64,000 nt of DNA from the sequence record MK234886. The stretch is one strand, 5' to 3'. Shown here piece by piece: positions 9,236 to 61,880 of the stretch. Within the stretch, counting starts at the first letter, position 1, and each line of letters starts with the position of its first letter. A program made the position numbers and the translations under genes. The notes beneath the pieces are model-generated. The model was not told where the DNA came from. It saw nothing but the letters and a program-made list of their open reading frames with translations, and ran no database searches. This DNA is from Escherichia phage AnYang.

Positions 9236-9914
9236 GATATTTCCATCCGGTCCACTTATCGCTTTTTAATCTGTAACTAACCAAACTATTAGATATTCCG
9301 AATTTGGAAGCCACTTCAGAACATGAATCATAACATATTCCATCGATAAGCAATTTCTTTTTGTATAAGTCTTTAAAAGATTGTGGCCTAGGTCCTGTAT
9401 TTGCCTTAAGAAGAGCAGCTCTTGTACTATCAGGCATTTTAGGTCCTTTCTTACCTGCTCTGGATTTACTTAGAGCTTTTCGATGTGCATCGGTAAGATT
9501 AATACCTTTATTTGGTGAAGGTATATTTCTAAGTCTTCTTGTTATAGAAACTTTTTTACAAACACTATCAGGTCGTGGAATACCTAATTTAGATTTACTT
9601 ATAGCAAGTTTATGTTCTTCAGATATTTTCTTACCAAGTCCACCTTTACCGCCAACAACCAAATTATAAGTATTCGGGTCTGAAACAAATTCTTCGTTAA
9701 CGAGTTCTCGCTCTTTATCAAAGGCCTCCTCTTGGGAATCCATAACAAAGAGAATTTCTTTTTCAAAATTCTCTATACCATGTTTTAATATAGCCTTCTT
9801 AATTAACTTACCTGAACCCATATAATGGTCATGGCGTTTGGTTTCTTTATGCACACCGATATAAATTTTACCATTCAATTTATTGGTTACTTTATATACG
9901 GTGTGTTTAATCAT
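9228..9914 (-). CDS. GIY-YIG homing endonuclease (Seg-like)
   Basis: 228 aa; TVYKVTNKLNGKIYIGVHKETKRHDHYMGSG; NUMOD-like repeats (HKLAISKSKLG, HRKALSKSRAG); inserted between 59 and 33. Confidence 0.8.
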   Translation of the reverse strand: MIKHTVYKVTNKLNGKIYIGVHKETKRHDHYMGSGKLIKKAILKHGIENFEKEILFVMDSQEEAFDKERELVNEEFVSDPNTYNLVVGGKGGLGKKISEEHKLAISKSKLGIPRPDSVCKKVSITRRLRNIPSPNKGINLTDAHRKALSKSRAGKKGPKMPDSTRAALLKANTGPRPQSFKDLYKKKLLIDGICYDSCSEVASKFGISNSLVSYRLKSDKWTGWKYHD

Positions 9915-46031: not shown

Positions 46032-46039
46032 TATTTATA
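46032..46039 (-). promoter_or_regulatory. late promoter TATAAATA (soc)
   Basis: Minus-strand TATAAATA about 30 nt upstream of the soc ATG. Confidence 0.6.
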
Positions 46040-46730
46040 TATCTCTAAAAGAGTATATTAAATTTTTGAGAGCACTTGCGGTAACGTCATATTTACCTTT
46101 AAGTTCTTTGACTACAGGACCTGTAGTTGGTTTACCTAATGAAAGCCAAATATTATAGATTTCGCTTTTCAATGGTTCATGCCAATGAGGAGCAGTTCGT
46201 TGAGCTTTAGAAGTGGCTTCAGATATTAATTTATTCCCACCATTCTCATAAAACTCTTTCATTATTTCTGATTGACGAGCTTTACGTTCAGGCCTATTCT
46301 GAGCTATAGCTTGAGCCTTCCTCATTTTAATCTTAGTTTCAGGTTTATTTAATCTAAGCTTGTGCTCTATACACTGTTCTTCAGTCCATTTATGTCCTTC
46401 GCTGCCAGCGCCACCTGGTAATATATTCAAGCATTCGTTAGGATGCTTTTCTCTTATTTTGGCTATTAAAAGTCTTTCATGATTAAAAGATTCTTCTAAA
46501 TTTTGGTGGCCTACAAACCAACGTATTTTATATTTTAGACCATACTTTTTATACATATTCCATAAGATTTTGCCAGAACCTGGATATCTATCTTTATTTG
46601 GATTTAGTATAAAGGTTTCATGTTTACCACCATACCAAAAGACGCCTTTCGGCGTCCTAATTTTTATCAAATAAGTTCTATAAAACTTAGCCTTAATAGC
46701 CACGGTCCTGCCTTGCAAAGTTTTCAGCAT
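46035..46730 (-). CDS. putative GIY-YIG homing endonuclease, SegF-like by position
   Basis: 231 aa; N-terminal YLIKIRTPKGVFWYGGKHETF module; between 56 and soc where T4 has segF. Confidence 0.5.
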   Translation of the reverse strand: MLKTLQGRTVAIKAKFYRTYLIKIRTPKGVFWYGGKHETFILNPNKDRYPGSGKILWNMYKKYGLKYKIRWFVGHQNLEESFNHERLLIAKIREKHPNECLNILPGGAGSEGHKWTEEQCIEHKLRLNKPETKIKMRKAQAIAQNRPERKARQSEIMKEFYENGGNKLISEATSKAQRTAPHWHEPLKSEIYNIWLSLGKPTTGPVVKELKGKYDVTASALKNLIYSFRDI

Positions 46731-47211
46731 TCTTCAGATAATAAAGTTTAAACATTTCTTCAGCCGACATATTCAGGCCAATAGCCATATTGAATACGAA
46801 GTGCATAATATCAATGAGTTCAAATTTAATTTCAAGCTGGTCTTCAGGAGACATTTCTGAAATAGGTTTGGCTTGTGCTTCCGGGTAACGGGCTTTCCAT
46901 TTTTTCCATACAGCAGATGCATCTTTCTCACCTTTAGACATTTCACCGAGGGAAGTCAGAAGTTCACGGAATTCATCGTCAATACAATCTTTCTGTTCAC
47001 GCATCCAAGCAACAACATCACCGGCTGTCGCTAATTTGTCCGGATGGTAACAATATTCACGGTCATTAGCCAAACGGACCTGTAATGATTTCTGCATATC
47101 AAGCATAACCTGCAGAGGGTCTTTATCTTCGTGAATCAGAGCATTAAAATAAGCTTCCTCAGCTTTATCAACACCGTCAATCAGGTTTGCGCATTCGTTA
47201 AAGTATGCCAT
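46693..47211 (-). CDS. 56: dCTP pyrophosphatase gp56 (MazG-like)
   Basis: 172 aa; size and synteny as T4 gp56. Confidence 0.85.
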   Translation of the reverse strand: MAYFNECANLIDGVDKAEEAYFNALIHEDKDPLQVMLDMQKSLQVRLANDREYCYHPDKLATAGDVVAWMREQKDCIDDEFRELLTSLGEMSKGEKDASAVWKKWKARYPEAQAKPISEMSPEDQLEIKFELIDIMHFVFNMAIGLNMSAEEMFKLYYLKNAENFARQDRGY

Positions 47212-52347: not shown

Positions 52348-52661
52348 CTCTTAGATTTAATTTTATCCAGTTCTTCTTGTATTTGCATTGTAACACATTT
52401 TTCTACATGAAGCGCTAGCTCTTCTTTTCGGTCTTCGGAAGGTGTTCCGAAATCAACCGACACTTTTCCATCTTTCTCAATAACAATATTCATCACATAA
52501 ACGATGTGAGCAGTGCCATCCGGTAAAGTAAGCATAATTTCCTGCTTAACAGAACCCATTGACTTACGGATTATATCTAATGATTTCTCATAATAACGAG
52601 GGTCACTAGGACCCTCTTCGGCATCTTTAACAAAATTATCTAAATCAGATAAATCAGTCAT
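52332..52661 (-). CDS. hypothetical protein (gene 40 position)
   Basis: 109-aa ORF between uvsX and 41. Confidence 0.5.
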   Translation of the reverse strand: MTDLSDLDNFVKDAEEGPSDPRYYEKSLDIIRKSMGSVKQEIMLTLPDGTAHIVYVMNIVIEKDGKVSVDFGTPSEDRKEELALHVEKCVTMQIQEELDKIKSKRWWKW

Positions 52662-53835
52662 GGTCGCTCACAAAATTCATGTTTTCTAAATCGCTTTCGA
52701 TGTCAGCGGCGCTTTGGGTATTTCCACCTAATTTAACAGCAACGTTTTTAGAGACACGAGAGTTAATAAGGTCGTTCACTGCATCGTCAACTTCTTTAAT
52801 AGAATTAATTGCACCAAGCTTATACTTATTCTCGATTGCTTCACGGAACGGAGCGTGTTTAAACAGAGGTCCCCAGAACTCAACACAATCGGTAGCTTTA
52901 GCACGCCATGCTTTTTCTTCTTGAACCATTTCACCTGTGGTTTCGTCAAGGAATGCACGATTATACCAACCAGCTTTAGGTTTCACGACAAAGCCGATAT
53001 CGGTAGCCATTTCAAGCAGACCAGAGAACGGGTCGATACCACCTTCGAAGTTAACGGTGATAGGGAACGTTGATTTCTCTTTAACCGTACGAGATTTCTC
53101 TGCTTTCAGTGTGAAGTCATAACCAGTGAGCTCAGTACCATCTTTAACTTGGCGTTTAGAGATAAAGAACACGGTAGAAGCAGAGTACAGAATACCAGTA
53201 CCACCACCCATAATCTCTTTAGGATACATTCCACCAATTTCCATAGCCGTGTGGTTAATTGCTACGCAAGGGATATCCTTGATGGTCAGATAAGGTGTTA
53301 CGATACGGAACAGAGATTTCAGTGACTTAGCACGAGTCATATCACCTACAACTTTCTCGTTCAAAGCATCTTCGGTTTCTTTCTTAGAAGCAGTGTTACC
53401 AATGGAGTCGATAAAGATAATAACCTTTTCGCCACGAGTAATTTCTTCTAACTGGTTGGTCATATCAACTTTAAGCTGTTCGACTGACTGGATTGGTGTA
53501 TGAACCACACGTTCCAAATCAACACCCATCGAACGGAAATAAGATTCTGAAGCACCAAACTCAGAGTCATAGAACAAACAAATTGCGTCTGGATATTTCT
53601 TCATATATGCCGCAACCATGGTAAGTCCAAACAACGTTTTAAAGTGTTTAGATGGGGCAGCAAAGATTGTCAAACCTGATTGTAAGCCTGCATTCAATGC
53701 ACCGCCTAATGCAATATTCAGCATAGGGATACGAGTAGGAACTTCGTCACGACCATTAAACAATTTAGATTTGGTCAGGTCGGCAGTCATTTTAGAAGTA
53801 GAAGCTTTAATCAAACGGGATTTTAAATCGGACAT
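52654..53835 (-). CDS. uvsX: UvsX recombinase (RecA-like)
   Basis: 393 aa; near-collinear with T4 UvsX (MSDLKSRLIKASTSK..., FYDSEFG, GGGTG). Confidence 0.9.
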   Translation of the reverse strand: MSDLKSRLIKASTSKMTADLTKSKLFNGRDEVPTRIPMLNIALGGALNAGLQSGLTIFAAPSKHFKTLFGLTMVAAYMKKYPDAICLFYDSEFGASESYFRSMGVDLERVVHTPIQSVEQLKVDMTNQLEEITRGEKVIIFIDSIGNTASKKETEDALNEKVVGDMTRAKSLKSLFRIVTPYLTIKDIPCVAINHTAMEIGGMYPKEIMGGGTGILYSASTVFFISKRQVKDGTELTGYDFTLKAEKSRTVKEKSTFPITVNFEGGIDPFSGLLEMATDIGFVVKPKAGWYNRAFLDETTGEMVQEEKAWRAKATDCVEFWGPLFKHAPFREAIENKYKLGAINSIKEVDDAVNDLINSRVSKNVAVKLGGNTQSAADIESDLENMNFVSDHD

Positions 53836-53912: not shown

Positions 53913-54806
53913 TTAAAGGACCACGTCCTCATAACTTGGCATTTCGTGCTCAGAATGGATGTGGGCACCGAAATAAATGAATTCAGCCAGTCCAGGATGG
54001 AATACTAAACCAGGATTCTCATGATAAATGATATGAGGTCTTGATTTCAGAATCTGGTAATATTCAACCTTACTCGGTTTGAATTTAATAATCTCTACAT
54101 CAGGACGATAGTCTTCACGTTTAAATGAATCATTCGGATCGGTGATATAAAGACGAGCACCTTCAGCCGCAGCTTGGTCTACAACTCTTTCGAATTGATA
54201 ACACTTATCAGAGATACGGAACGGATGGAAAATACCATCAATTTTAATAGGCGCTAGACCTTCAGAGTAACGCTCAATTACTGCGGGATTAATTACCTTT
54301 TGGTCTACAAAAATCTTATCAGAGGACGCACCTCGTGACACCAGGACGTCTTTCTGACATTGATTCAGGACTGTAGTATAAATCGAACGTTCAACTGAAG
54401 ACACGTCGATATCAATGAACTCATCAATATAATAACGAGGAACTTCAGGGTCCATTGTAATGTTAAAGTTGAATTGTACAGTCTGAGTGCCATCATAACC
54501 TGTGATATCGGTTACTAATCCTGAGCAGTCATAGTATTCGATTAATGAATCAACGACGAACTCGTTTTCAGACCAAAAATGTTTACGGGTTTCATAAGCA
54601 TTTTCTTTATACCAAAGCGGCACAAAATTCAGTTCAGGAAACAATTCAATACATTCTTTGATATCGCTCGAATTTCTAGGATAAGCCAGATAATCACCTG
54701 GGCGAGCACGGTTTAAATGGAGTTGAAAATTGCCGTCCTTAAGGACGGCATATTCACCTGTTTCGTAACTACGCATACTGAAAATAGGAACGATAAATAG
54801 ACTCAT
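53913..54806 (-). CDS. hypothetical protein in the beta-gt slot (candidate DNA sugar transferase)
   Basis: 297-aa ORF, 4-nt overlap with the hydroxymethylase gene; no motif recognised; functional guess from position only. Confidence 0.6.
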   Translation of the reverse strand: MSLFIVPIFSMRSYETGEYAVLKDGNFQLHLNRARPGDYLAYPRNSSDIKECIELFPELNFVPLWYKENAYETRKHFWSENEFVVDSLIEYYDCSGLVTDITGYDGTQTVQFNFNITMDPEVPRYYIDEFIDIDVSSVERSIYTTVLNQCQKDVLVSRGASSDKIFVDQKVINPAVIERYSEGLAPIKIDGIFHPFRISDKCYQFERVVDQAAAEGARLYITDPNDSFKREDYRPDVEIIKFKPSKVEYYQILKSRPHIIYHENPGLVFHPGLAEFIYFGAHIHSEHEMPSYEDVVL

Positions 54807-55501
54807 TTCAGGAATCCTCGAACGTAGTCAAAATCACGTTCAAATACGTGTGCACTAACCATAGTATGGGAATATGTGCCCAGACCAACACCACATTGTT
54901 CAGCAATAAAGGCCATCAATTTACCCTGCAGATAGAAATCCAGCTGCATAACGATAGCACAGTTCTGTGAACGCATATGAGTGTGTGCATACAGACGTCC
55001 ATCACGAATATAATATGTTACCGAATCGGTACATGGATATTCTAAGGATTCGTCAGAATCAAGGAGGGCTTGGTCTTGTTCTTGGAGAATTTGGAACACA
55101 ACTCTTCGCGAGTTAGGCTTTTCTTTAAGCTCTTTAAGTAAGGCTGGGAGTTGGGCCACAATTCGAGGTCCATAGAAAGTGTTGAAGTTTGCAGGCAATA
55201 CGTCACTTTTCGGCTTATCAATGAACTTAGCAACATTAGGGTATTCCTTAAATGCTTCGGCGGCATCAGTACCACCAGAAATCATAAATTTCCAGAAAGA
55301 TTCGGCGTATTCATAACTAATACGATTGATACGCGGGTCGGTGAATTTATAGGTGCTTGCATCCAGTACTTCTACCGAAGCAGAACCAATTTCATAACAA
55401 CGGCCGATACGAGAATCAACTGCAAACTGTGGAGCTTCCAGGATTTCTTCGTTCATTTGTTTAAACGCGTTTTCAAAACTAACAGCGGTAATGTGTTTCA
55501 T
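54803..55501 (-). CDS. 42: divergent dCMP hydroxymethylase-like enzyme (thymidylate-synthase fold)
   Basis: 232 aa; KPNSRRVVF and EYPCTDSVTYYIRDGRLYAHTHMRSQN parallel T4 gp42 NPDSRRGIM and FMCTNTVQYLIRDKK...MRSND, but the rest differs. Confidence 0.65.
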   Translation of the reverse strand: MKHITAVSFENAFKQMNEEILEAPQFAVDSRIGRCYEIGSASVEVLDASTYKFTDPRINRISYEYAESFWKFMISGGTDAAEAFKEYPNVAKFIDKPKSDVLPANFNTFYGPRIVAQLPALLKELKEKPNSRRVVFQILQEQDQALLDSDESLEYPCTDSVTYYIRDGRLYAHTHMRSQNCAIVMQLDFYLQGKLMAFIAEQCGVGLGTYSHTMVSAHVFERDFDYVRGFLK

Positions 55502-56034
55502 TTATTCACCTTATTTTCAATATATTCATTCAGACGTTTTAATTCTACCATATCTACGTTAAGCAAGTTATTATGGCCGTCGTGATTTAAGATTTTAAAC
55601 ACGTTTTCAAAACATGTTTCATACTGCCGGATAGTTAGGTTGAACTCATCTTTGGTTAATTTAATAAGGTCATCTTCGAAGTCTTCATCTAATGGGTTAC
55701 GGGTTAAAATAACCTCAATAATATTGAATTCAGATTTAAACCCTTTCCAATCTTCCAGTTCTACATAAGGGTCCATTTCACCACGAAGGAATCCCGAGTA
55801 AACAATATTACTAGGATATCCACGGTCTAAGATGTAGACAAAATTAGGGTCTAAAAACTTATATAAGGTTTCGACTAAAGCCTTATCATTATCAGTCCCT
55901 ATTGAAATGCACTTACCATTAATCTTTTTAGGAAAATCAATAAGACGATATTTCTTATCAGATAAAAGCGATTCAATTAAAGTAGACTTCCCGGAATTAT
56001 CCGGGCCGTCGATAACAATGATTTTTGGTTTCAC
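55498..56034 (-). CDS. P-loop nucleotide kinase-like protein
   Basis: 178 aa; Walker A IVIDGPDNSGKSTL; dNMP/thymidylate-kinase-like. Confidence 0.6.
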   Translation of the reverse strand: MKPKIIVIDGPDNSGKSTLIESLLSDKKYRLIDFPKKINGKCISIGTDNDKALVETLYKFLDPNFVYILDRGYPSNIVYSGFLRGEMDPYVELEDWKGFKSEFNIIEVILTRNPLDEDFEDDLIKLTKDEFNLTIRQYETCFENVFKILNHDGHNNLLNVDMVELKRLNEYIENKVNK

Positions 56035-56429
56035 GGATGATATGCCTTATAGGTTTCAAGAGTTCCTTCACGAACCATTTCTTTAAAGTGGTCAGGACGG
56101 ATTGCTCGGTCATCGATGATAAAAGTATAACTCGGCTTATGTGTAAGCAGATTATGATATTTCAATCCAATCTTTTCAAGGTTCTTAACCAATGCAGGAA
56201 CTACTTCAACCAAGATTCGACCGGGGCCACATGAAGTCATACCACGAGCGGTGAACAATGTAATCTCGTACCCTTCATCATAAAGCTTATTAATCATGGA
56301 CACCATTTCGGTGTCCGGTTTAAAGTTTTCGTAATCACGGTCATGGTTCCAAACCGTGATTGTATTATCGATGTCAAAACATAAATGGGGCTTATTTTCT
56401 ACTCGATGTGACATTAAATTTTCTTCCAT
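56031..56429 (-). CDS. HAD-superfamily phosphatase
   Basis: 132 aa; motif I CFDIDNTIT (DxDxT), later K and IIDD elements. Confidence 0.6.
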   Translation of the reverse strand: MEENLMSHRVENKPHLCFDIDNTITVWNHDRDYENFKPDTEMVSMINKLYDEGYEITLFTARGMTSCGPGRILVEVVPALVKNLEKIGLKYHNLLTHKPSYTFIIDDRAIRPDHFKEMVREGTLETYKAYHP

Positions 56430-58087
56430 TGTTTGTGGAGTTCAGTAGAACCTGTAGGTTTATATTTTACACCAGTTTCTTGGTCAAGCAAAACCCACTT
56501 ATCAGGACAACGAGTGATAATTTGGGCCGTGATAGGGTCACGAACTTCATCGACAAATTCACCTGTGATAAGCTTACGCTTACGAGGATGCCGCTTCAGC
56601 AGCACACTCAGTTGGTACAAACCGTTGTAATAAGCACCTAGAGCTTTCAGAGGGTTATTTTTAAAGTAACCTGCCAGTGCCATCCAGATAACAGCAATCC
56701 AGAGCTTGTGCTTAAATGTACACATCGGAATATCGTCTAAAGGCATAACCTTTTCAATATCAACGAATACACGAGTTCCGTTACGAGTTAAGCCGCCCCA
56801 TAGAGGGTCAGAGTTAAATTTGTCATAACCATCGATAGAATAAAGCACCTTAGCTTCATCATAAATTGCAGGGCCTTTAGAACTATTACCAAAATAACCA
56901 CGTGGGTCGATGATTTTAATATCACCTTCATCCGACAACATAATATTACTGTAGTGCGGGTCACCATGAATAAGTTGGTACGGTTCTTTATGTTCAGACA
57001 GAATTTCTAAGGCGTGACGAAGAAGTTTTTCTGGGTCGCCTACCTTGAAGTCGTTAACATGGGTAATGCCCTGTGGAGCAAAGCCTTCAATCAATCCAGC
57101 AATAGAAGCATTACGAATCAGGACCTTGTCCAATACTTCTTTCTTAACATCGGAATACCATTGCTCATCGGATGGATTATCGATAGTCCCACCGAATGAA
57201 CGCAATGCACTAATGACCTTATAAACCATGAGGACTTTAGTTTCTTTAGACATAAACCGATAGGCATCTGCCATAGTACGACCAAAGATACGTTCCATTT
57301 TAATGAATTCACCTGGAGCAAAGTCTACAATGCTCGGAACGAATTCAGAATCAATAGAATTGTACCAATTGATTTCTTTAGATTGGATTTCTTTACCTAA
57401 TTCGTTAGTAGGTACTTTAATAGCCAGATTCTCAGTGAACTCTAATTTATTAAATTCACGGTTAATTTCAGAATCTTCATGGGCCTTAGCCAGTTTCAGT
57501 TTGTCACCGACATCAACTACAAAGTCCAGCTTACGTTCGGTCAAATGGACCATTGAATCTAGATTGTCAGCAAGGTCTTCGCCGTAATTAGAACCGTTAA
57601 AACCTGTCCAATTGGCTACTTGATACAAACCAACTACACCGCCACCGGTACCAATTTCACGCAGGTACGGTTCTTCAAATGTAAAACGACAGTCGGTCCC
57701 GTAGGTATAACAGTAGTCGTTATCCCACTCAACTTTATGACCCTCAGGAATGATGTCACACCAGTTAAACAGGACATTGTGCCCGATGATATCTTCGGCA
57801 ATGCAATCAATAGCATGAGCTGAACCATTAGCCACATCTACGTTACGAATAGTGAATTTAGGCTTATCACTATTAATCATGTTAATGGATTTAATATAGC
57901 CTTTAACGAGGTCGTTAAATTTGCTGTGAATAACCAGAATAATTTCATCTGATTGGTTACTATACAAATCATACAAATGTTTTAGTACTGTATGTTGTTT
58001 GTAGTTAACCAATACCTTCGGGATTTCGTTAGTAATTGGATACAACCGTGAGCCAAGACCTGCGCCTAAAATAACAACCTTTTTCAT
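56414..58087 (-). CDS. bifunctional sugar-1-phosphate nucleotidyltransferase / APH-like kinase
   Basis: Start at MKKVVILGAGLGSRL (GAGGAA RBS; track start 58117 has none); N-terminal NTP-transferase glycine loop; C-terminal kinase motifs LIHGDPHYSNIML and DIKIIDPRG. Confidence 0.7.
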   Translation of the reverse strand: MKKVVILGAGLGSRLYPITNEIPKVLVNYKQHTVLKHLYDLYSNQSDEIILVIHSKFNDLVKGYIKSINMINSDKPKFTIRNVDVANGSAHAIDCIAEDIIGHNVLFNWCDIIPEGHKVEWDNDYCYTYGTDCRFTFEEPYLREIGTGGGVVGLYQVANWTGFNGSNYGEDLADNLDSMVHLTERKLDFVVDVGDKLKLAKAHEDSEINREFNKLEFTENLAIKVPTNELGKEIQSKEINWYNSIDSEFVPSIVDFAPGEFIKMERIFGRTMADAYRFMSKETKVLMVYKVISALRSFGGTIDNPSDEQWYSDVKKEVLDKVLIRNASIAGLIEGFAPQGITHVNDFKVGDPEKLLRHALEILSEHKEPYQLIHGDPHYSNIMLSDEGDIKIIDPRGYFGNSSKGPAIYDEAKVLYSIDGYDKFNSDPLWGGLTRNGTRVFVDIEKVMPLDDIPMCTFKHKLWIAVIWMALAGYFKNNPLKALGAYYNGLYQLSVLLKRHPRKRKLITGEFVDEVRDPITAQIITRCPDKWVLLDQETGVKYKPTGSTELHKQWKKI

Positions 58088-58147
58088 TATCTGTTCCTCA
58101 AGTGAATGTAGGTACATTATACACTATTTTTAATAAATTGATACTGC

Positions 58148-58648
58148 TTAAATCTTATCTTTACCGATTTCGATGCACTGTTCTATTGCTGCCGGCACTT
58201 TGGTCTTGAGCTTATTGATTTGTTTCTTATAATCACGGGCCTTATCAAAGCTCTCGGTTTCGAGCATTTCGTAATAACGAGCCTCGTGGATGGAAATCTG
58301 TAGATTGATATGATTTACGCACATCGCATACAGTTTCTGTTTTTTGTACAAATCGTCTTGACGCTTCATTTCTGCCTGGTGTTTGGCTAGTACCGCTTCA
58401 CGCTTAGACTCTTGTTCACGTTGGAATTCGATTTCATGTTGAGCATATTTTGCACAGTTATTACCACATTGATTATTAGCTCGGGTATACACAAGTCCAG
58501 AACCTGCACGGAATTTCATTTCGCCATCGAATTGTTTCTGTTCAGCTGCGATACGAGCTTTACCAACTTCATCAGCCGAAACTGCATCACCATATTGGAC
58601 CGCGCAACCTGATAGGAGCATACTCATTGCGATAATTAACTTTTTCAT
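58148..58648 (-). CDS. putative lipoprotein
   Basis: 166 aa; signal peptide plus lipobox (AMSMLLSGCAV); coiled-coil-like, Cys-containing mature part. Confidence 0.6.
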   Translation of the reverse strand: MKKLIIAMSMLLSGCAVQYGDAVSADEVGKARIAAEQKQFDGEMKFRAGSGLVYTRANNQCGNNCAKYAQHEIEFQREQESKREAVLAKHQAEMKRQDDLYKKQKLYAMCVNHINLQISIHEARYYEMLETESFDKARDYKKQINKLKTKVPAAIEQCIEIGKDKI

Positions 58649-58655
58649 AATATCC

Positions 58656-58793
58656 TCAATTAAAACAGTTATACTTAATTTGTGCTATAAGAATAATCCA
58701 TCCGATGATTAGTGTCGGAATCATTGGTGGAATTGCCACTGCCCAATAAACGGTAAAGGCGACCATTATAAGAAATAAAATAATTATTTTCAT
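58656..58793 (-). CDS. hypothetical small membrane protein (imm.1 position)
   Basis: Manual 45-aa ORF MKIIILFLIMVAFTVYWAVAIPPMIPTLIIGWIILIAQIKYNCFN; ATGA overlap with upstream stop. Confidence 0.35.
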   Translation of the reverse strand: MKIIILFLIMVAFTVYWAVAIPPMIPTLIIGWIILIAQIKYNCFN

Positions 58794-59089: not shown

Positions 59090-61801
59090 TTAAAAGTCAA
59101 ACATGTCAAATAATGTTGCTTTTTTCTCGTAGTCGATTTTAGCAGACTCGGTAAAACCGGTCAGAGGCTTGATAAAGGTCTTTTGGAACAGTACGTTGTA
59201 GTCCATCCAACGGAGGACTTGGTCACGAATCTGAATCGGAAGTTCAATACCTGAAGGCCATGCCATACAAGCTTCACCAAACGGGTTGCCTTCTTTAAGT
59301 GGCAGTACGTATACCTTTTCACCATCAACGATACGAGGCATAGTCAAATCACCAGCAGAAGCACGCATGTAAGCTAAGCAACCTTTGATGTGGTACGGAC
59401 ACTTAGAACCAGGGAATCCGCCTTCATTATATTTCTCGATGTTGTTAGCACTGGATACTGCTGCAATGCTTACATAGTCCAGTTCGTTAAATTCCTTATT
59501 AAACTGTTTGAAATATTCTTGCAAAGATGCCTCGCCTTCCTGAAGCATACGACGGATACATTCTTTCAGAGCTTTCTGAACCGCTTTAGGTGTACTTGAT
59601 TTCTGGGTTTCGAGCCCCATGATTTTCAAGTGTGGTTCGGCATAACGAGTGCCTTCCATGTCCCAAACGTTAAGTGCATAACGTTTCTTGCCTGTCCAGA
59701 ATCCACCAAGACCTTTAGAACCAAGTGGAGGACCTGCGATAGCTTCTCGGTCCATGAACATCAAGTGTTGTTTGTTGTTCATGTACTCGCACATCTCACG
59801 GAAGCCTGCATCAATAGCTGGTTCCATACGTTCACGTGCAAATTTATCTAAGAAGTCAACCCAGTGGTTAGTGTCACGGAATTTATCTTCGCCTACTTTA
59901 TTGATGATTGCATCTGCCTTAACATAAATGGAGTCGGTATCACCGTAGAGCACGAACTTCTGATTTTCAGTCTTACACACGCTATTCAGATATTCGTTAA
60001 CCTTACGTTCAATCCATTGGAGGGCCATTTGACCAAACAGTGTGATTGCAGTTGCGTTCCTAAGGTCATAGTAACGGAACCATACGTTACCAAGTGCACC
60101 ATAAAGGGAGTTGATAAGCAACTTACGGTTAATCTGAGCAGTGTTACCTGCAACTTCAGTGAGCTCGGCTTTCTTCAACATTTCTCTTAAAGAAGGCGCT
60201 GACAGTGCTTTAATCTGGGCTTTGATTTCGTCAGAGAAGTCAAAACGATAATCGATATCCAGTGGACTATCAACTGAGAGATTAGGATTTTCCAATGCTT
60301 CTTTAATTAACTCGCCATTACGTTGAGCTGCAAGCATGTAACCTTTATGTTCTTTACGCTGCAAGAATACCTTGGTGATTTCTGTCGGAATCACACCTTC
60401 ACGGTCTTTATAATACATCATGCCGTTAGGAGAGCAACTGTAGGTGTCGCTAGGACGCTGAGCAGTTCCGGCAATATATTCATGTATCGGTGCGTTAGCG
60501 AATGTGCCTGCGATGGTCTCTGGGCTTATATTCACTTGTCGAATGATACTCGGATACAGAGATGTAAGGTCGAAACTCATTACATATTTGTAAGCGTTAG
60601 GAATAGGTTCCTTAACGAAAGCACCAGGATAAGGTTGGACCACGTGTGAACGAGCTTGTGGAATTACCTTGCCTTGTTCTTTAAGACTATTAAAGATAAT
60701 AGCATCCCAAGTCTTAATTGGACTGAACACCGACTGAATCTGCATCTTAGCATAATACCCCATGTCCAAACTCAGAAGAATGAACTGGCGTTTCATATCA
60801 ATCTGCACTACACGATATACGTCGATAATGTTATAGGAAATATATCGTTGGTGGTTAGTCTCACGTAACTTGGAGATTGGACCATCATATTTCAACTTAC
60901 CTACTTTCAATTCATATTCAGAAACATAATCCAGAGAATAAGAAGGCTGGTTGGTAAAGCTGAATTTTTTATATAGGTCGATATAATCCAGAACAGAGAT
61001 ACCGAACAAAGTAATGATTTCACGAGCACCGTACATGTTCTCGATAACTTTAACACGAGTTTTACGATGTGGGCTTAATCGCTTAGCAGTGTTCTCACCG
61101 AACAGATTTTTCAGACGGTTATAAACGTATGGTACGTCAAACGACTCAACGTTCCATCCAGTCAAAATCACAGGAGTTTTCTGTTGCCAGAAGTTCAGAT
61201 ACTCAAGCATCATTTCTTCTTCAGAATTAAACGGAAGATAAACGATTTTGTCAATGATTTCTTGTGGAACTTCGTCACCACCTTCGTCTTGGAGTTTCTC
61301 AGCGATTTTAATCGACCACTCTTCAACAGTACCATAAGGTGAAACTAAAAGGTCGAATACATAGAATTTATCGTCAATCGAGTCGTAGTGGGTAATGGCA
61401 TCGATAGGATGTTTAGCCTGAGCTGGTTCAGGGAATCCATCAGGAGATGTTACCTCGATGTCGAAGTTAGCAATACGAATCTTAGAAGAATCATACTTGA
61501 TTTCTTTACGATAGGTATCGGACAAATAGGCTAATTTGTAGTCGTCCATACCCAGGGCTTCGAGACCCATATCGTCCATGCGTTTCATCCATTGGGATGC
61601 ATCACGCATAGAGTCAAATTCTTTCTTAACACAACCCTTACCATAGATATCAATGTATTTTACGGCTTGCTCTGGATTGGCATGCATAAACATTGTAGGC
61701 TTGTAAGGAACTTCACGACTACGTTCGTTACCATTTTTATCGATGTAACGTTCGAGAATATTATCACCGATTTGTTCGACTGTCAAATAGAATTCTTGCA
61801 T
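59090..61801 (-). CDS. 43: DNA polymerase gp43 (family B)
   Basis: Start at MQEFYLTVEQIGDN (track ORF has a 20-codon extension); 903 aa; exo motifs FDIEV, polymerase motifs DLTSLYPSI, YGDTDS; reads closer to RB69 gp43 than T4, from memory. Confidence 0.9.
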   Translation of the reverse strand: MQEFYLTVEQIGDNILERYIDKNGNERSREVPYKPTMFMHANPEQAVKYIDIYGKGCVKKEFDSMRDASQWMKRMDDMGLEALGMDDYKLAYLSDTYRKEIKYDSSKIRIANFDIEVTSPDGFPEPAQAKHPIDAITHYDSIDDKFYVFDLLVSPYGTVEEWSIKIAEKLQDEGGDEVPQEIIDKIVYLPFNSEEEMMLEYLNFWQQKTPVILTGWNVESFDVPYVYNRLKNLFGENTAKRLSPHRKTRVKVIENMYGAREIITLFGISVLDYIDLYKKFSFTNQPSYSLDYVSEYELKVGKLKYDGPISKLRETNHQRYISYNIIDVYRVVQIDMKRQFILLSLDMGYYAKMQIQSVFSPIKTWDAIIFNSLKEQGKVIPQARSHVVQPYPGAFVKEPIPNAYKYVMSFDLTSLYPSIIRQVNISPETIAGTFANAPIHEYIAGTAQRPSDTYSCSPNGMMYYKDREGVIPTEITKVFLQRKEHKGYMLAAQRNGELIKEALENPNLSVDSPLDIDYRFDFSDEIKAQIKALSAPSLREMLKKAELTEVAGNTAQINRKLLINSLYGALGNVWFRYYDLRNATAITLFGQMALQWIERKVNEYLNSVCKTENQKFVLYGDTDSIYVKADAIINKVGEDKFRDTNHWVDFLDKFARERMEPAIDAGFREMCEYMNNKQHLMFMDREAIAGPPLGSKGLGGFWTGKKRYALNVWDMEGTRYAEPHLKIMGLETQKSSTPKAVQKALKECIRRMLQEGEASLQEYFKQFNKEFNELDYVSIAAVSSANNIEKYNEGGFPGSKCPYHIKGCLAYMRASAGDLTMPRIVDGEKVYVLPLKEGNPFGEACMAWPSGIELPIQIRDQVLRWMDYNVLFQKTFIKPLTGFTESAKIDYEKKATLFDMFDF

Positions 61802-61859
61802 TTCATTTCCTTTATAGACGAGTGATTGTCTTTTGTTTGTTGATGAATCATTATACTCC

Positions 61860-61880
61860 AAAAGGGACCGAAGTCCCTTT
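61860..61880. terminator. hairpin flanked by A and T runs (possible bidirectional terminator upstream of gene 43)
   Basis: AAAA-GGGACC-GAAG-TCCC-TTT. Confidence 0.4.

Follow-up and report, generated by a model that had tools for sequence, protein, structure and literature searches.

Escherichia phage AnYang carries a probable Dhakavirus version of the arabinosyl-5-hydroxycytosine DNA hypermodification pathway

A five-gene module between uvsX and imm

We analysed a 64,000-nucleotide stretch (the window) of Escherichia phage AnYang (MK234886), a Dhakavirus-type T-even phage, and focused on a module of five minus-strand genes at 53913-58087 that is flanked by uvsX and imm/gp43. The uvsX gene (52654-53835) lies on one side, and a 166-amino-acid lipoprotein-like open reading frame (ORF), a 45-amino-acid ORF, imm and the DNA polymerase gene follow on the other. 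Successive module genes overlap start to stop by 16, 4, 4 and 4 nucleotides, and both the ORF list and the sequence agreed with the five ORFs and the 4-16 nucleotide overlaps given in a preliminary description, made from the letters alone. That description had also placed only beta-gt and gene 42 between uvsX and imm of T4; both genes are there, but so is segA, between uvsX and beta-gt. The module and two associated features are as follows.

56414-58087, minus strand: predicted AfhE-type fusion, 557 amino acids (Pfam, RB69 gp53/gp52, phrog_4098, motifs)
56031-56429, minus strand: predicted AfhF-type small HAD phosphatase, 132 amino acids (RB69 gp51, PDB 9IQW, motifs)
55498-56034, minus strand: thymidylate kinase (TMPK)/YorR-like P-loop kinase, 178 amino acids, GTG start (RB69 gp45, phrog_761)
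54803-55501, minus strand: predicted 5-hydroxy-dCMP synthase with a thymidylate synthase (TS) fold, 232 amino acids (RB69 gp48, PDB 9IQU/9IQC/9IR2, residue alignment)
53913-54806, minus strand: GT-B glycosyltransferase, 297 amino acids (orthologue of RB69 gp46:47)
58088-58147, minus strand: intergenic module leader, with a TATAAT box at 58121-58116 and a GAGGA Shine-Dalgarno sequence before ATG 58087
46693-47211, minus strand: gp56 dCTPase/dUTPase (tblastn, 78% identity to RB69 gp56 over 173 amino acids, E=1.5e-89; Pfam dUTPase_2)

All five module ORFs are backed by strong homologues and are, judged by these, real genes. Catalytic motifs are intact in every module enzyme (GAGLGSRL, HGDPHYSN, IIDP, DIDNT, IIDD, GPDNSGKS and PCT). 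The domains first called by eye were recovered: Pfam found the NTP_transferase and APH fusion and Thymidylat_synt, and the HAD and P-loop matches were weak but with their motifs present. By megablast, the module region is ~97% identical at the nucleotide level to IME08, C6, MX01, Bp7 and related records, in which the module genes are mostly labelled 'hypothetical'.

All five proteins are orthologous to products of the cluster between uvsX and gp43 of phage RB69 (gp45, gp46:47, gp48, gp51 and gp52:53), with 37-80% identity. These data suggest that the module is very probably the Dhakavirus version of the arabinosyl-5-hydroxycytosine DNA hypermodification pathway, with functions that would carry over by orthology from the activities of RB69 gp48, DLP3 gp80 and HY126 AfhE/AfhF. 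Thus, the preliminary description was right to see a phage DNA-hypermodification module here, and its hunch of an RB69-like arabinose system held for each of the five proteins. The pathway is already known; it was solved in 2025-2026 in RB69 and relatives, with Dhakaviruses named as carriers. The literature on it includes Thomas 2018, Mahler et al. Cell Host Microbe 2025, He et al. Nat Chem Biol 2026 and Lee et al. NAR 2026. Since Lee et al. (NAR 2026, PMC13326640) explicitly list Dhakaviruses among the genera with a syntenic arabinosylation cluster, and class Dhaka-, Marfa- and Bragaviruses as arabinosylation clusters, the enzyme set is not the possibly uncharacterised one it was first taken for; it is described there and in related papers.

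The TS-fold enzyme and the modified base

The protein encoded at 54803-55501 matches Pfam Thymidylat_synt (4.8e-14) and has a cysteine, within a PCT motif, aligned to C146 of ThyA. It is 80% identical to RB69 gp48, matches PDB 9IQU/9IQC/9IR2 with E ~2e-126, and is 25% identical to T4 gp42 over 159 amino acids. We aligned it with E. coli ThyA, T4 gp42 and RB69 gp48, using ThyA numbering. The window protein has Glu143, Cys146, Asn169 and Asp177, whereas T4 gp42 has Asp143, Cys146, Asp169 and Asp177; the motif ending at position 169 reads RSQN in the window protein, RSCD in ThyA and RSND in T4 gp42. Lee et al. (PMC13326640) proposed Asn at this position (D169N) as diagnostic of 5-hydroxy-dCMP (5hodCMP) synthases and confirmed the criterion with nine more D169N homologues, with Asp177 indicating dCMP rather than dUMP as substrate and an acidic residue at 143. 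The window protein has the whole set (TS fold with Cys146, D169N, Asp177 with acidic 143) and has neither the Asp169 nor the close gp42 similarity of a T4 gp42-type enzyme. RB69 gp48 and DLP3 gp80 make 5hodCMP with oxygen taken from O2 and flavin bound, and the same flavin/O2 synthesis has been shown for the HY126 enzyme (PMC13326640). By these residues the protein is a predicted 5-hydroxy-dCMP synthase, a flavin/O2-dependent dCMP C5-hydroxylase and not the hydroxymethylase of the preliminary description. Because of the D169N signature and the 80% identity to gp48 versus 25% to gp42, we read the modified base as 5-hydroxycytosine (5hoC), in place of the 5-hydroxymethylcytosine (5-hmC) proposed earlier.

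In the earlier proposal, a divergent gp42-type hydroxymethylase makes 5-hmC, and a free non-glucose sugar is salvaged (HAD, then anomeric kinase, then nucleotidyltransferase) and placed on the hydroxymethyl group. The TS fold with its dCMP-specifying Asp177 and acidic residue 143 would suit this as well, as in T4 gp42, but Asn169 in place of Asp169 and the 80% identity to a proven 5hodCMP synthase do not. RB69 DNA was likewise first described as arabinosyl-hmC (Thomas 2018); however, mass spectrometry (MS) and nuclear magnetic resonance (NMR) by Lee et al. (PMC13326640) located the arabinose of RB69 and Acinetobacter phage DLP3 DNA on cytosine C5 via the 5-hydroxycytosine oxygen, an ether link to 5hoC and not to hydroxymethylcytosine. 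An independent 2026 paper judged the older RB69 arabosyl-hmC assignment erroneous. As for the order of the sugar steps, Table 1 of Lee et al. (PMC13326640) still gives 'dephosphorylate, then phosphorylate' as putative functions, whereas the HY126 biochemistry, as far as it is relayed in that paper, has the kinase first and the phosphatase second. Taken together, we consider the 5-hmC pathway very improbable.

Two large metagenomic phage contigs (L006:6426-6932 and L007:1-523) carry a Flavodoxin_2 gene of the NAD(P)H-dependent FMN reductase type 1-6 kb upstream of a TS-type hydroxylase gene. This neighbour fits the need of the hydroxylase for reduced flavin. Near the window's module, there is no Flavodoxin_2-type gene.

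Sugar activation and transfer

The fusion at 56414-58087 joins NTP_transferase (Pfam 2.4e-8, amino acids 3-100) and APH (1.2e-5, amino acids 346-417) in a single 557-amino-acid polypeptide, with GAGLGSRL as the N-terminal nucleotidyltransferase motif and HGDPHYSN and IIDP as motifs of the C-terminal APH-fold kinase. It aligns collinearly and end to end with RB69 gp53 (45% identity, E 4e-57) and gp52 (41%, E 6e-78) and matches phrog_4098 at 4e-269; it has both the AfhE architecture and full-length orthology to gp53:52. In the account of He et al. 2026 that is given in PMC13326640, HY126 AfhE (= gp52:53) is a bifunctional arabinose-5-phosphate (A5P) kinase and UDP-arabinose pyrophosphorylase, and AfhF (= gp51) is an Mg-dependent phosphatase that turns arabinofuranose (Araf)-1,5-P2 into Araf-1-P. 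According to that account, phosphorylation of A5P at C1 by the kinase domain precedes removal of the 5-phosphate by the HAD enzyme. The window's fusion is thus predicted to be an AfhE-type A5P 1-kinase and UDP-arabinofuranose pyrophosphorylase. Its start at 58087 has the GAGGA Shine-Dalgarno sequence 8 nucleotides upstream and agrees with the start of RB69 gp53; RefSeq IME08 starts the gene at the equivalent of ATG 58117, inside the TATAAT box and 30 nucleotides upstream of 58087. Of the two, 58087 appears better supported.

The HAD protein (56031-56429) has a weak HAD Pfam match, with motifs I (DIDNT) and IV (IIDD) present, and is 63% identical to RB69 gp51. It matches PDB 9IQW (E=3.9e-55), 1XPJ (2.7e-12) and NCBIfam TIGR01689, a capsule-biosynthesis phosphatase (1.6e-14). 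With the DxDxT and DD motifs and the gp51/9IQW homology that mark the AfhF type, it is predicted to convert Araf-1,5-bisphosphate to Araf-1-phosphate. A possible alternative start of the gene is ATG 56414 (TAATG, 1-nucleotide overlap), as in RB69 gp51. PDB 9IQW and 9IQU/9IQC/9IR2 are 2025-26 entries that share their code series with 9IQZ, labelled 'phage HY126 glycosyltransferase'. Database names for the cluster (IME08 L001:6357-8446) are misleading: the RefSeq name 'phosphoheptose isomerase' for the HAD protein was rejected as a misnomer inherited from phrog_1238, the hydroxylase appears as 'thymidylate synthase' or 'dCMP hydroxymethylase', the kinase as 'thymidylate kinase', and the transferase and AfhE as 'hypothetical'.

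The 297-amino-acid protein (53913-54806) gave no Pfam match and nothing in a sequence-only PDB search, and a fold search was therefore needed. This identified a GT-B fold, with values of 17.8 for 6KIH, 17.1 for BshA, 16.1 for PimA, 14.6 for the HY126 glycosyltransferase 9IQZ and 13.4 for T4 alpha-glucosyltransferase; 6KIH was likewise the top match for RB69 gp46:47 in Lee et al. (PMC13326640). The protein is 69% identical to RB69 gp47 and 63% to gp46, which are parts of a single gene that a sequencing error has divided. Its GT-B fold, its orthology and the position of its gene next to the TS homologue place it in the first-transferase family (RB69 gp46:47/DLP3 gp79, phrog_3891), and it is predicted to be the first (base-proximal) 5hoC arabinofuranosyltransferase. 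A tblastn search of the window with T4 beta-gt returned noise only (E 0.58).

Because the five proteins are orthologous to RB69/HY126 genes, two parts of the preliminary sugar chain gain support: synthesis of an NDP-pentose, here NDP-arabinose, by the fusion and the HAD protein, and transfer by the 297-amino-acid 'orphan' (63-69% to gp46:47). Its phosphatase-then-kinase order has to be reversed, and the pathway would draw off a sugar phosphate of the host or the phage instead of salvaging a free sugar, both on the HY126 biochemistry as passed on in PMC13326640.

The preliminary description had named homology of the fusion to a lipid pathway as evidence that would speak against a DNA role, and AfhE orthology was found instead. 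In such a pathway, the fusion would perform LicA/LicC-type head-group (choline/amino-alcohol) activation for lipids or the envelope, and the 297-amino-acid protein would be unrelated to DNA. The N-terminal domain is weakly similar to LicC (1JYK, E 0.0011), but its weak matches to sugar-1-phosphate nucleotidyltransferases (heptose pathway, RmlA, MurU, GlmU including its archaeal type) are equal or better. For the homologues in RB69 and DLP3, Lee et al. (PMC13326640) listed LicC and choline kinase among the structural matches; in the window protein there was no Choline_kinase Pfam match at E<=0.1, and choline activation was rejected. Both A5P kinase and UDP-arabinose pyrophosphorylase activities have been shown for the orthologous AfhE, as cited at second hand above; the gene is tightly coupled to the 5hodCMP synthase and GT-B transferase genes in 32/42 loci of the survey below, and it sits among replication genes. 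We give lipid head-group activation almost no credence.

Distribution of the cluster and the predicted product

To compare clusters, we surveyed 51 viral and 3 metagenomic loci with a transferase homologue, scoring partners by tblastn; counts refer to the 42 adequately flanked loci. A TS homologue was present in 40/42, the TMPK-like kinase in 39/42, AfhE in 32/42, HAD in 29/42, an A5P isomerase in 22/42, a U32-like gene in 18/42 and a second glycosyltransferase (GT) in 4/42. Because the TS-GT-kinase trio stands alone in 8 loci, which fits the adjacent locus numbers gp214-216 of Rhizobium phage RL38J1, the conserved core is, on gene content, hydroxylase, transferase and kinase, with arabinose activation as an add-on.

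The P-loop kinase (55498-56034) has a weak Pfam match, a GPDNSGKS motif, 37% identity to RB69 gp45 (E=2e-35), a match to phrog_761 'thymidylate kinase' (1.8e-39) and a weak match to YorR (2AXP). In 39/42 loci, the 8 without sugar-activation genes among them, a homologue of this kinase adjoins the first GT or the TS homologue. Since the kinase belongs to the core and the activation genes are add-ons, we place it in the nucleotide branch, not in sugar activation, and infer that it serves specifically to phosphorylate the modified dCMP. T4-like phages already possess a gp1-type kinase that accepts 5hodCMP. Because the TMPK-like kinase is nonetheless near-universal, even without sugar genes, the first sugar might go onto the mononucleotide. 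In that case, glycosyl-5hodCMP would be the substrate of the kinase, and the dCTP analogue used by the polymerase would carry its sugar before it enters DNA. We regard this as unlikely, although it is in line with the finding of Lee et al. (PMC13326640) of no single-transferase activity on 5hoC-DNA. If true, it breaks the T4 rule of post-replicative glycosylation.

By tblastn, no homologue of RB69 gp55 (A5P isomerase), gp50 (U32-like) or gp3 (second GT) is present in the 64-kb window, and the rIIA-gp39 gap, the site of gp3 in RB69, holds only a DUF7367 ORF and a 95-amino-acid ORF. Among 50,697 phage records, gp3 and gp55 matched Mosigviruses, Acinetobacter phages and others but no Dhakavirus. 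All 10 isomerase-less loci (Dhakavirus x6, Marfavirus x3 and Bragavirus Pm5461) carry an AfhE with 73% identity or more to that of the window, whereas AfhE identity does not exceed 44% in any of the 22 isomerase-containing loci. No corresponding divide is seen in the transferase, the window's being 69% identical to RB69 and 68-69% to the Marfa-type. We read this pattern as one ancestral isomerase loss in a module lineage that would rely on host A5P.

The AfhE split could also mean that, on the same 5hoC base and with the same enzymology, the isomerase-less AfhE/HAD sub-lineage of Dhakavirus, Marfavirus and Bragavirus activates another sugar phosphate, such as a host pentose-5-phosphate, to give a different glycosyl-5hoC. 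The searchable literature holds no chemical data for these three genera, and 5hoC does carry other sugars elsewhere, for example galactose/glucose in RL38J1. However, the unsplit transferase points to a common donor, and the pattern in the 10 loci, which come from just three clades, is explained by a single ancestral loss. In addition, Gram-negative hosts supply A5P via KdsD/GutQ, and Lee et al. place all three genera with the arabinosylation clusters. The chance of a different sugar is therefore, in our judgement, slim.

With arabinose as the sugar, the nucleotide branch would start with gp56 dCTPase, which had been recognised from the outset and would yield dCMP while excluding dCTP. The TS-fold enzyme would hydroxylate dCMP at C5 with flavin and O2 to 5hodCMP, which a phage gp1-type dNMP kinase (outside the window), probably the TMPK-like kinase and host NDK would convert to 5hodCTP, and the polymerase would use this in place of dCTP. 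As previously supposed, this polymerase is RB69-like (83% identity to RB69 gp43 versus 61% to T4 gp43). In the sugar branch, the APH-fold C-terminal domain would phosphorylate D-arabinose-5-phosphate at C1, the small HAD phosphatase would remove the 5-phosphate to leave Araf-1-P, and the N-terminal nucleotidyltransferase domain would form UDP-arabinofuranose. The GT-B enzyme would then put arabinose on the 5-OH of 5hoC in an ether/glycosidic link. A5P is produced in Gram-negative hosts by KdsD/GutQ on the way to Kdo, and because no phage isomerase is encoded, these enzymes would supply it here. Since there is no second arabinosyltransferase, the expected DNA product is mono-arabinosyl-5hoC. 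In RB69, NP and Bas46/47, which have a second transferase, the DNA is doubly arabinosylated; in Thanatos, which has a single GT, it is mono-arabinosylated according to Lee et al. (PMC13326640). Against 243 Da for 5hodC (PMC13326640), a mono-pentosyl 5hodC calculates to ~375 Da.

Several points weigh against this reading. The window's AfhE belongs to a distinct sub-lineage (41-45% to RB69) that is never accompanied by a phage A5P isomerase, and its substrate is assumed. The window covers ~64 of ~170 kb, and a non-homologous second transferase could lie elsewhere in the genome. No nucleoside or restriction data for any Dhakavirus were found in the searchable literature. Finally, single GTs of RB69 and DLP3 gave no in vitro transfer of the first arabinose in Lee et al. 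(PMC13326640), who left undistinguished whether it is added to DNA or to a mononucleotide.

Compared with the RB69 gp45-gp55/HY126 Afh cluster of Mosigvirus, the module shares the five orthologous enzymes, the uvsX-to-polymerase locus, D169N, the fused kinase/nucleotidyltransferase, a GT-B first transferase and gp56. It differs in having no gp55 isomerase, U32-like gp50, gp49 or second arabinosyltransferase gp3, in the TMPK-like kinase, which lies between HAD and hydroxylase here and after the transferase in RB69, and in its predicted product, mono- rather than di-arabinosyl-5hoC. Klebsiella phage Marfa (Marfavirus) and Proteus phage Pm5461 (Bragavirus) have the same isomerase-less AfhE-HAD-kinase-...-TS-GT1 arrangement, with AfhE 73-81% identical; both keep a U32-like gene, which in Pm5461 is separated from the hydroxylase gene by a type II chorismate mutase; the window has neither the U32-like gene nor the mutase. 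RL38J1 gp214-216 and the metagenomic 'trio-only' loci share the TMPK-like kinase, GT and D169N TS homologue but have no AfhE, HAD or isomerase genes; their donors are host or other NDP-hexoses, and RL38J1 DNA contains glycosyl-5hoC with galactose/glucose (PMC13326640). The 42/alpha-gt/beta-gt system of T4 follows the same logic in the same 42/beta-gt slot (dCTPase, TS-fold dCMP C5 modification, kinases, polymerase incorporation, GT-B transfer). T4 uses folate hydroxymethylation and glucose on CH2OH, in contrast to the predicted flavin/O2 hydroxylation and ether-linked pentose here; its donor UDP-glucose is a host metabolite, whereas UDP-Araf needs phage enzymes, and the window has no beta-gt homologue.

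The U32-family 'peptidase' of the RB69 gp50 type (Pfam Peptidase_U32 ~1e-10) is common in arabinosylation clusters (RB69 L002:8493-9662, L008:9049-10125, L054, L058). In Pm5461 (L029:7510-9300 = L060:4411-6201), the CM_2 type II chorismate mutase between the U32 and hydroxylase genes has E 3.7e-12; RB69 gp49, in the same position, was considered as a cryptic chorismate mutase and rejected, with no similarity. Because the U32 enzymes RlhA, TrhP and UbiU/V are prephenate-dependent, O2-independent hydroxylases, one of which makes rRNA 5-hydroxycytidine (PMC5727448, PMC6599085, PMC10990095), 5hoC may be formed anaerobically through the phage U32 protein. In three distant loci, GT and U32 occur with no TS homologue within ~5-10 kb. 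A literature search found no paper linking U32 or prephenate to phage DNA modification.

Neighbouring genes and significance

The TATAAT box in the module leader (58088-58147) is a possible promoter, although it was not called by a generic sigma-70 scan. Promoter-like site counts in the promoter/terminator scan of the region equalled the shuffle expectation, and we therefore draw no operon-boundary claims from it. The DNA polymerase ORF (59090-61861, minus strand) as called begins with TTG, 20 codons before the Met of MQEFYLTVEQ; since this Met aligns with residue 1 of RB69 and T4 gp43, the start is probably ATG 61801. The 166-amino-acid ORF (58148-58648, minus strand; phrog_1754, function unassigned in PHROG) has a lipoprotein signal, MKKLIIAMSMLLSGC, with lipobox LSGC. 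With the very hydrophobic 45-amino-acid ORF (58656-58793, minus strand), it occupies the gap from imm to the module; the counterpart position upstream of imm in T4 is occupied by imm.1. Both products may be superinfection-exclusion or envelope proteins. T4 SegA, a GIY-YIG homing endonuclease, gave tblastn matches in a 231-amino-acid ORF (46035-46730, minus strand; E 0.001) that overlaps the end of the gp56 gene, and at 9534-9899 (minus strand, ~9.5-9.9 kb; E 2e-17). A Pfam search of the 231-amino-acid ORF gave no match. Both places are probably seg-like homing endonuclease genes.

The susceptibility of these phages to restriction, CRISPR and type IV systems is decided by the pathway, which is hence relevant to phage-therapy candidates of the IME08/JS98 group, a significance already established for RB69-type phages. 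To this, the window adds little: a clean minimal five-gene version without the isomerase, the U32-like gene or the second transferase, which predicts mono-arabinosyl-5hoC built on host arabinose-5-phosphate, with strictly O2-dependent hydroxylation.

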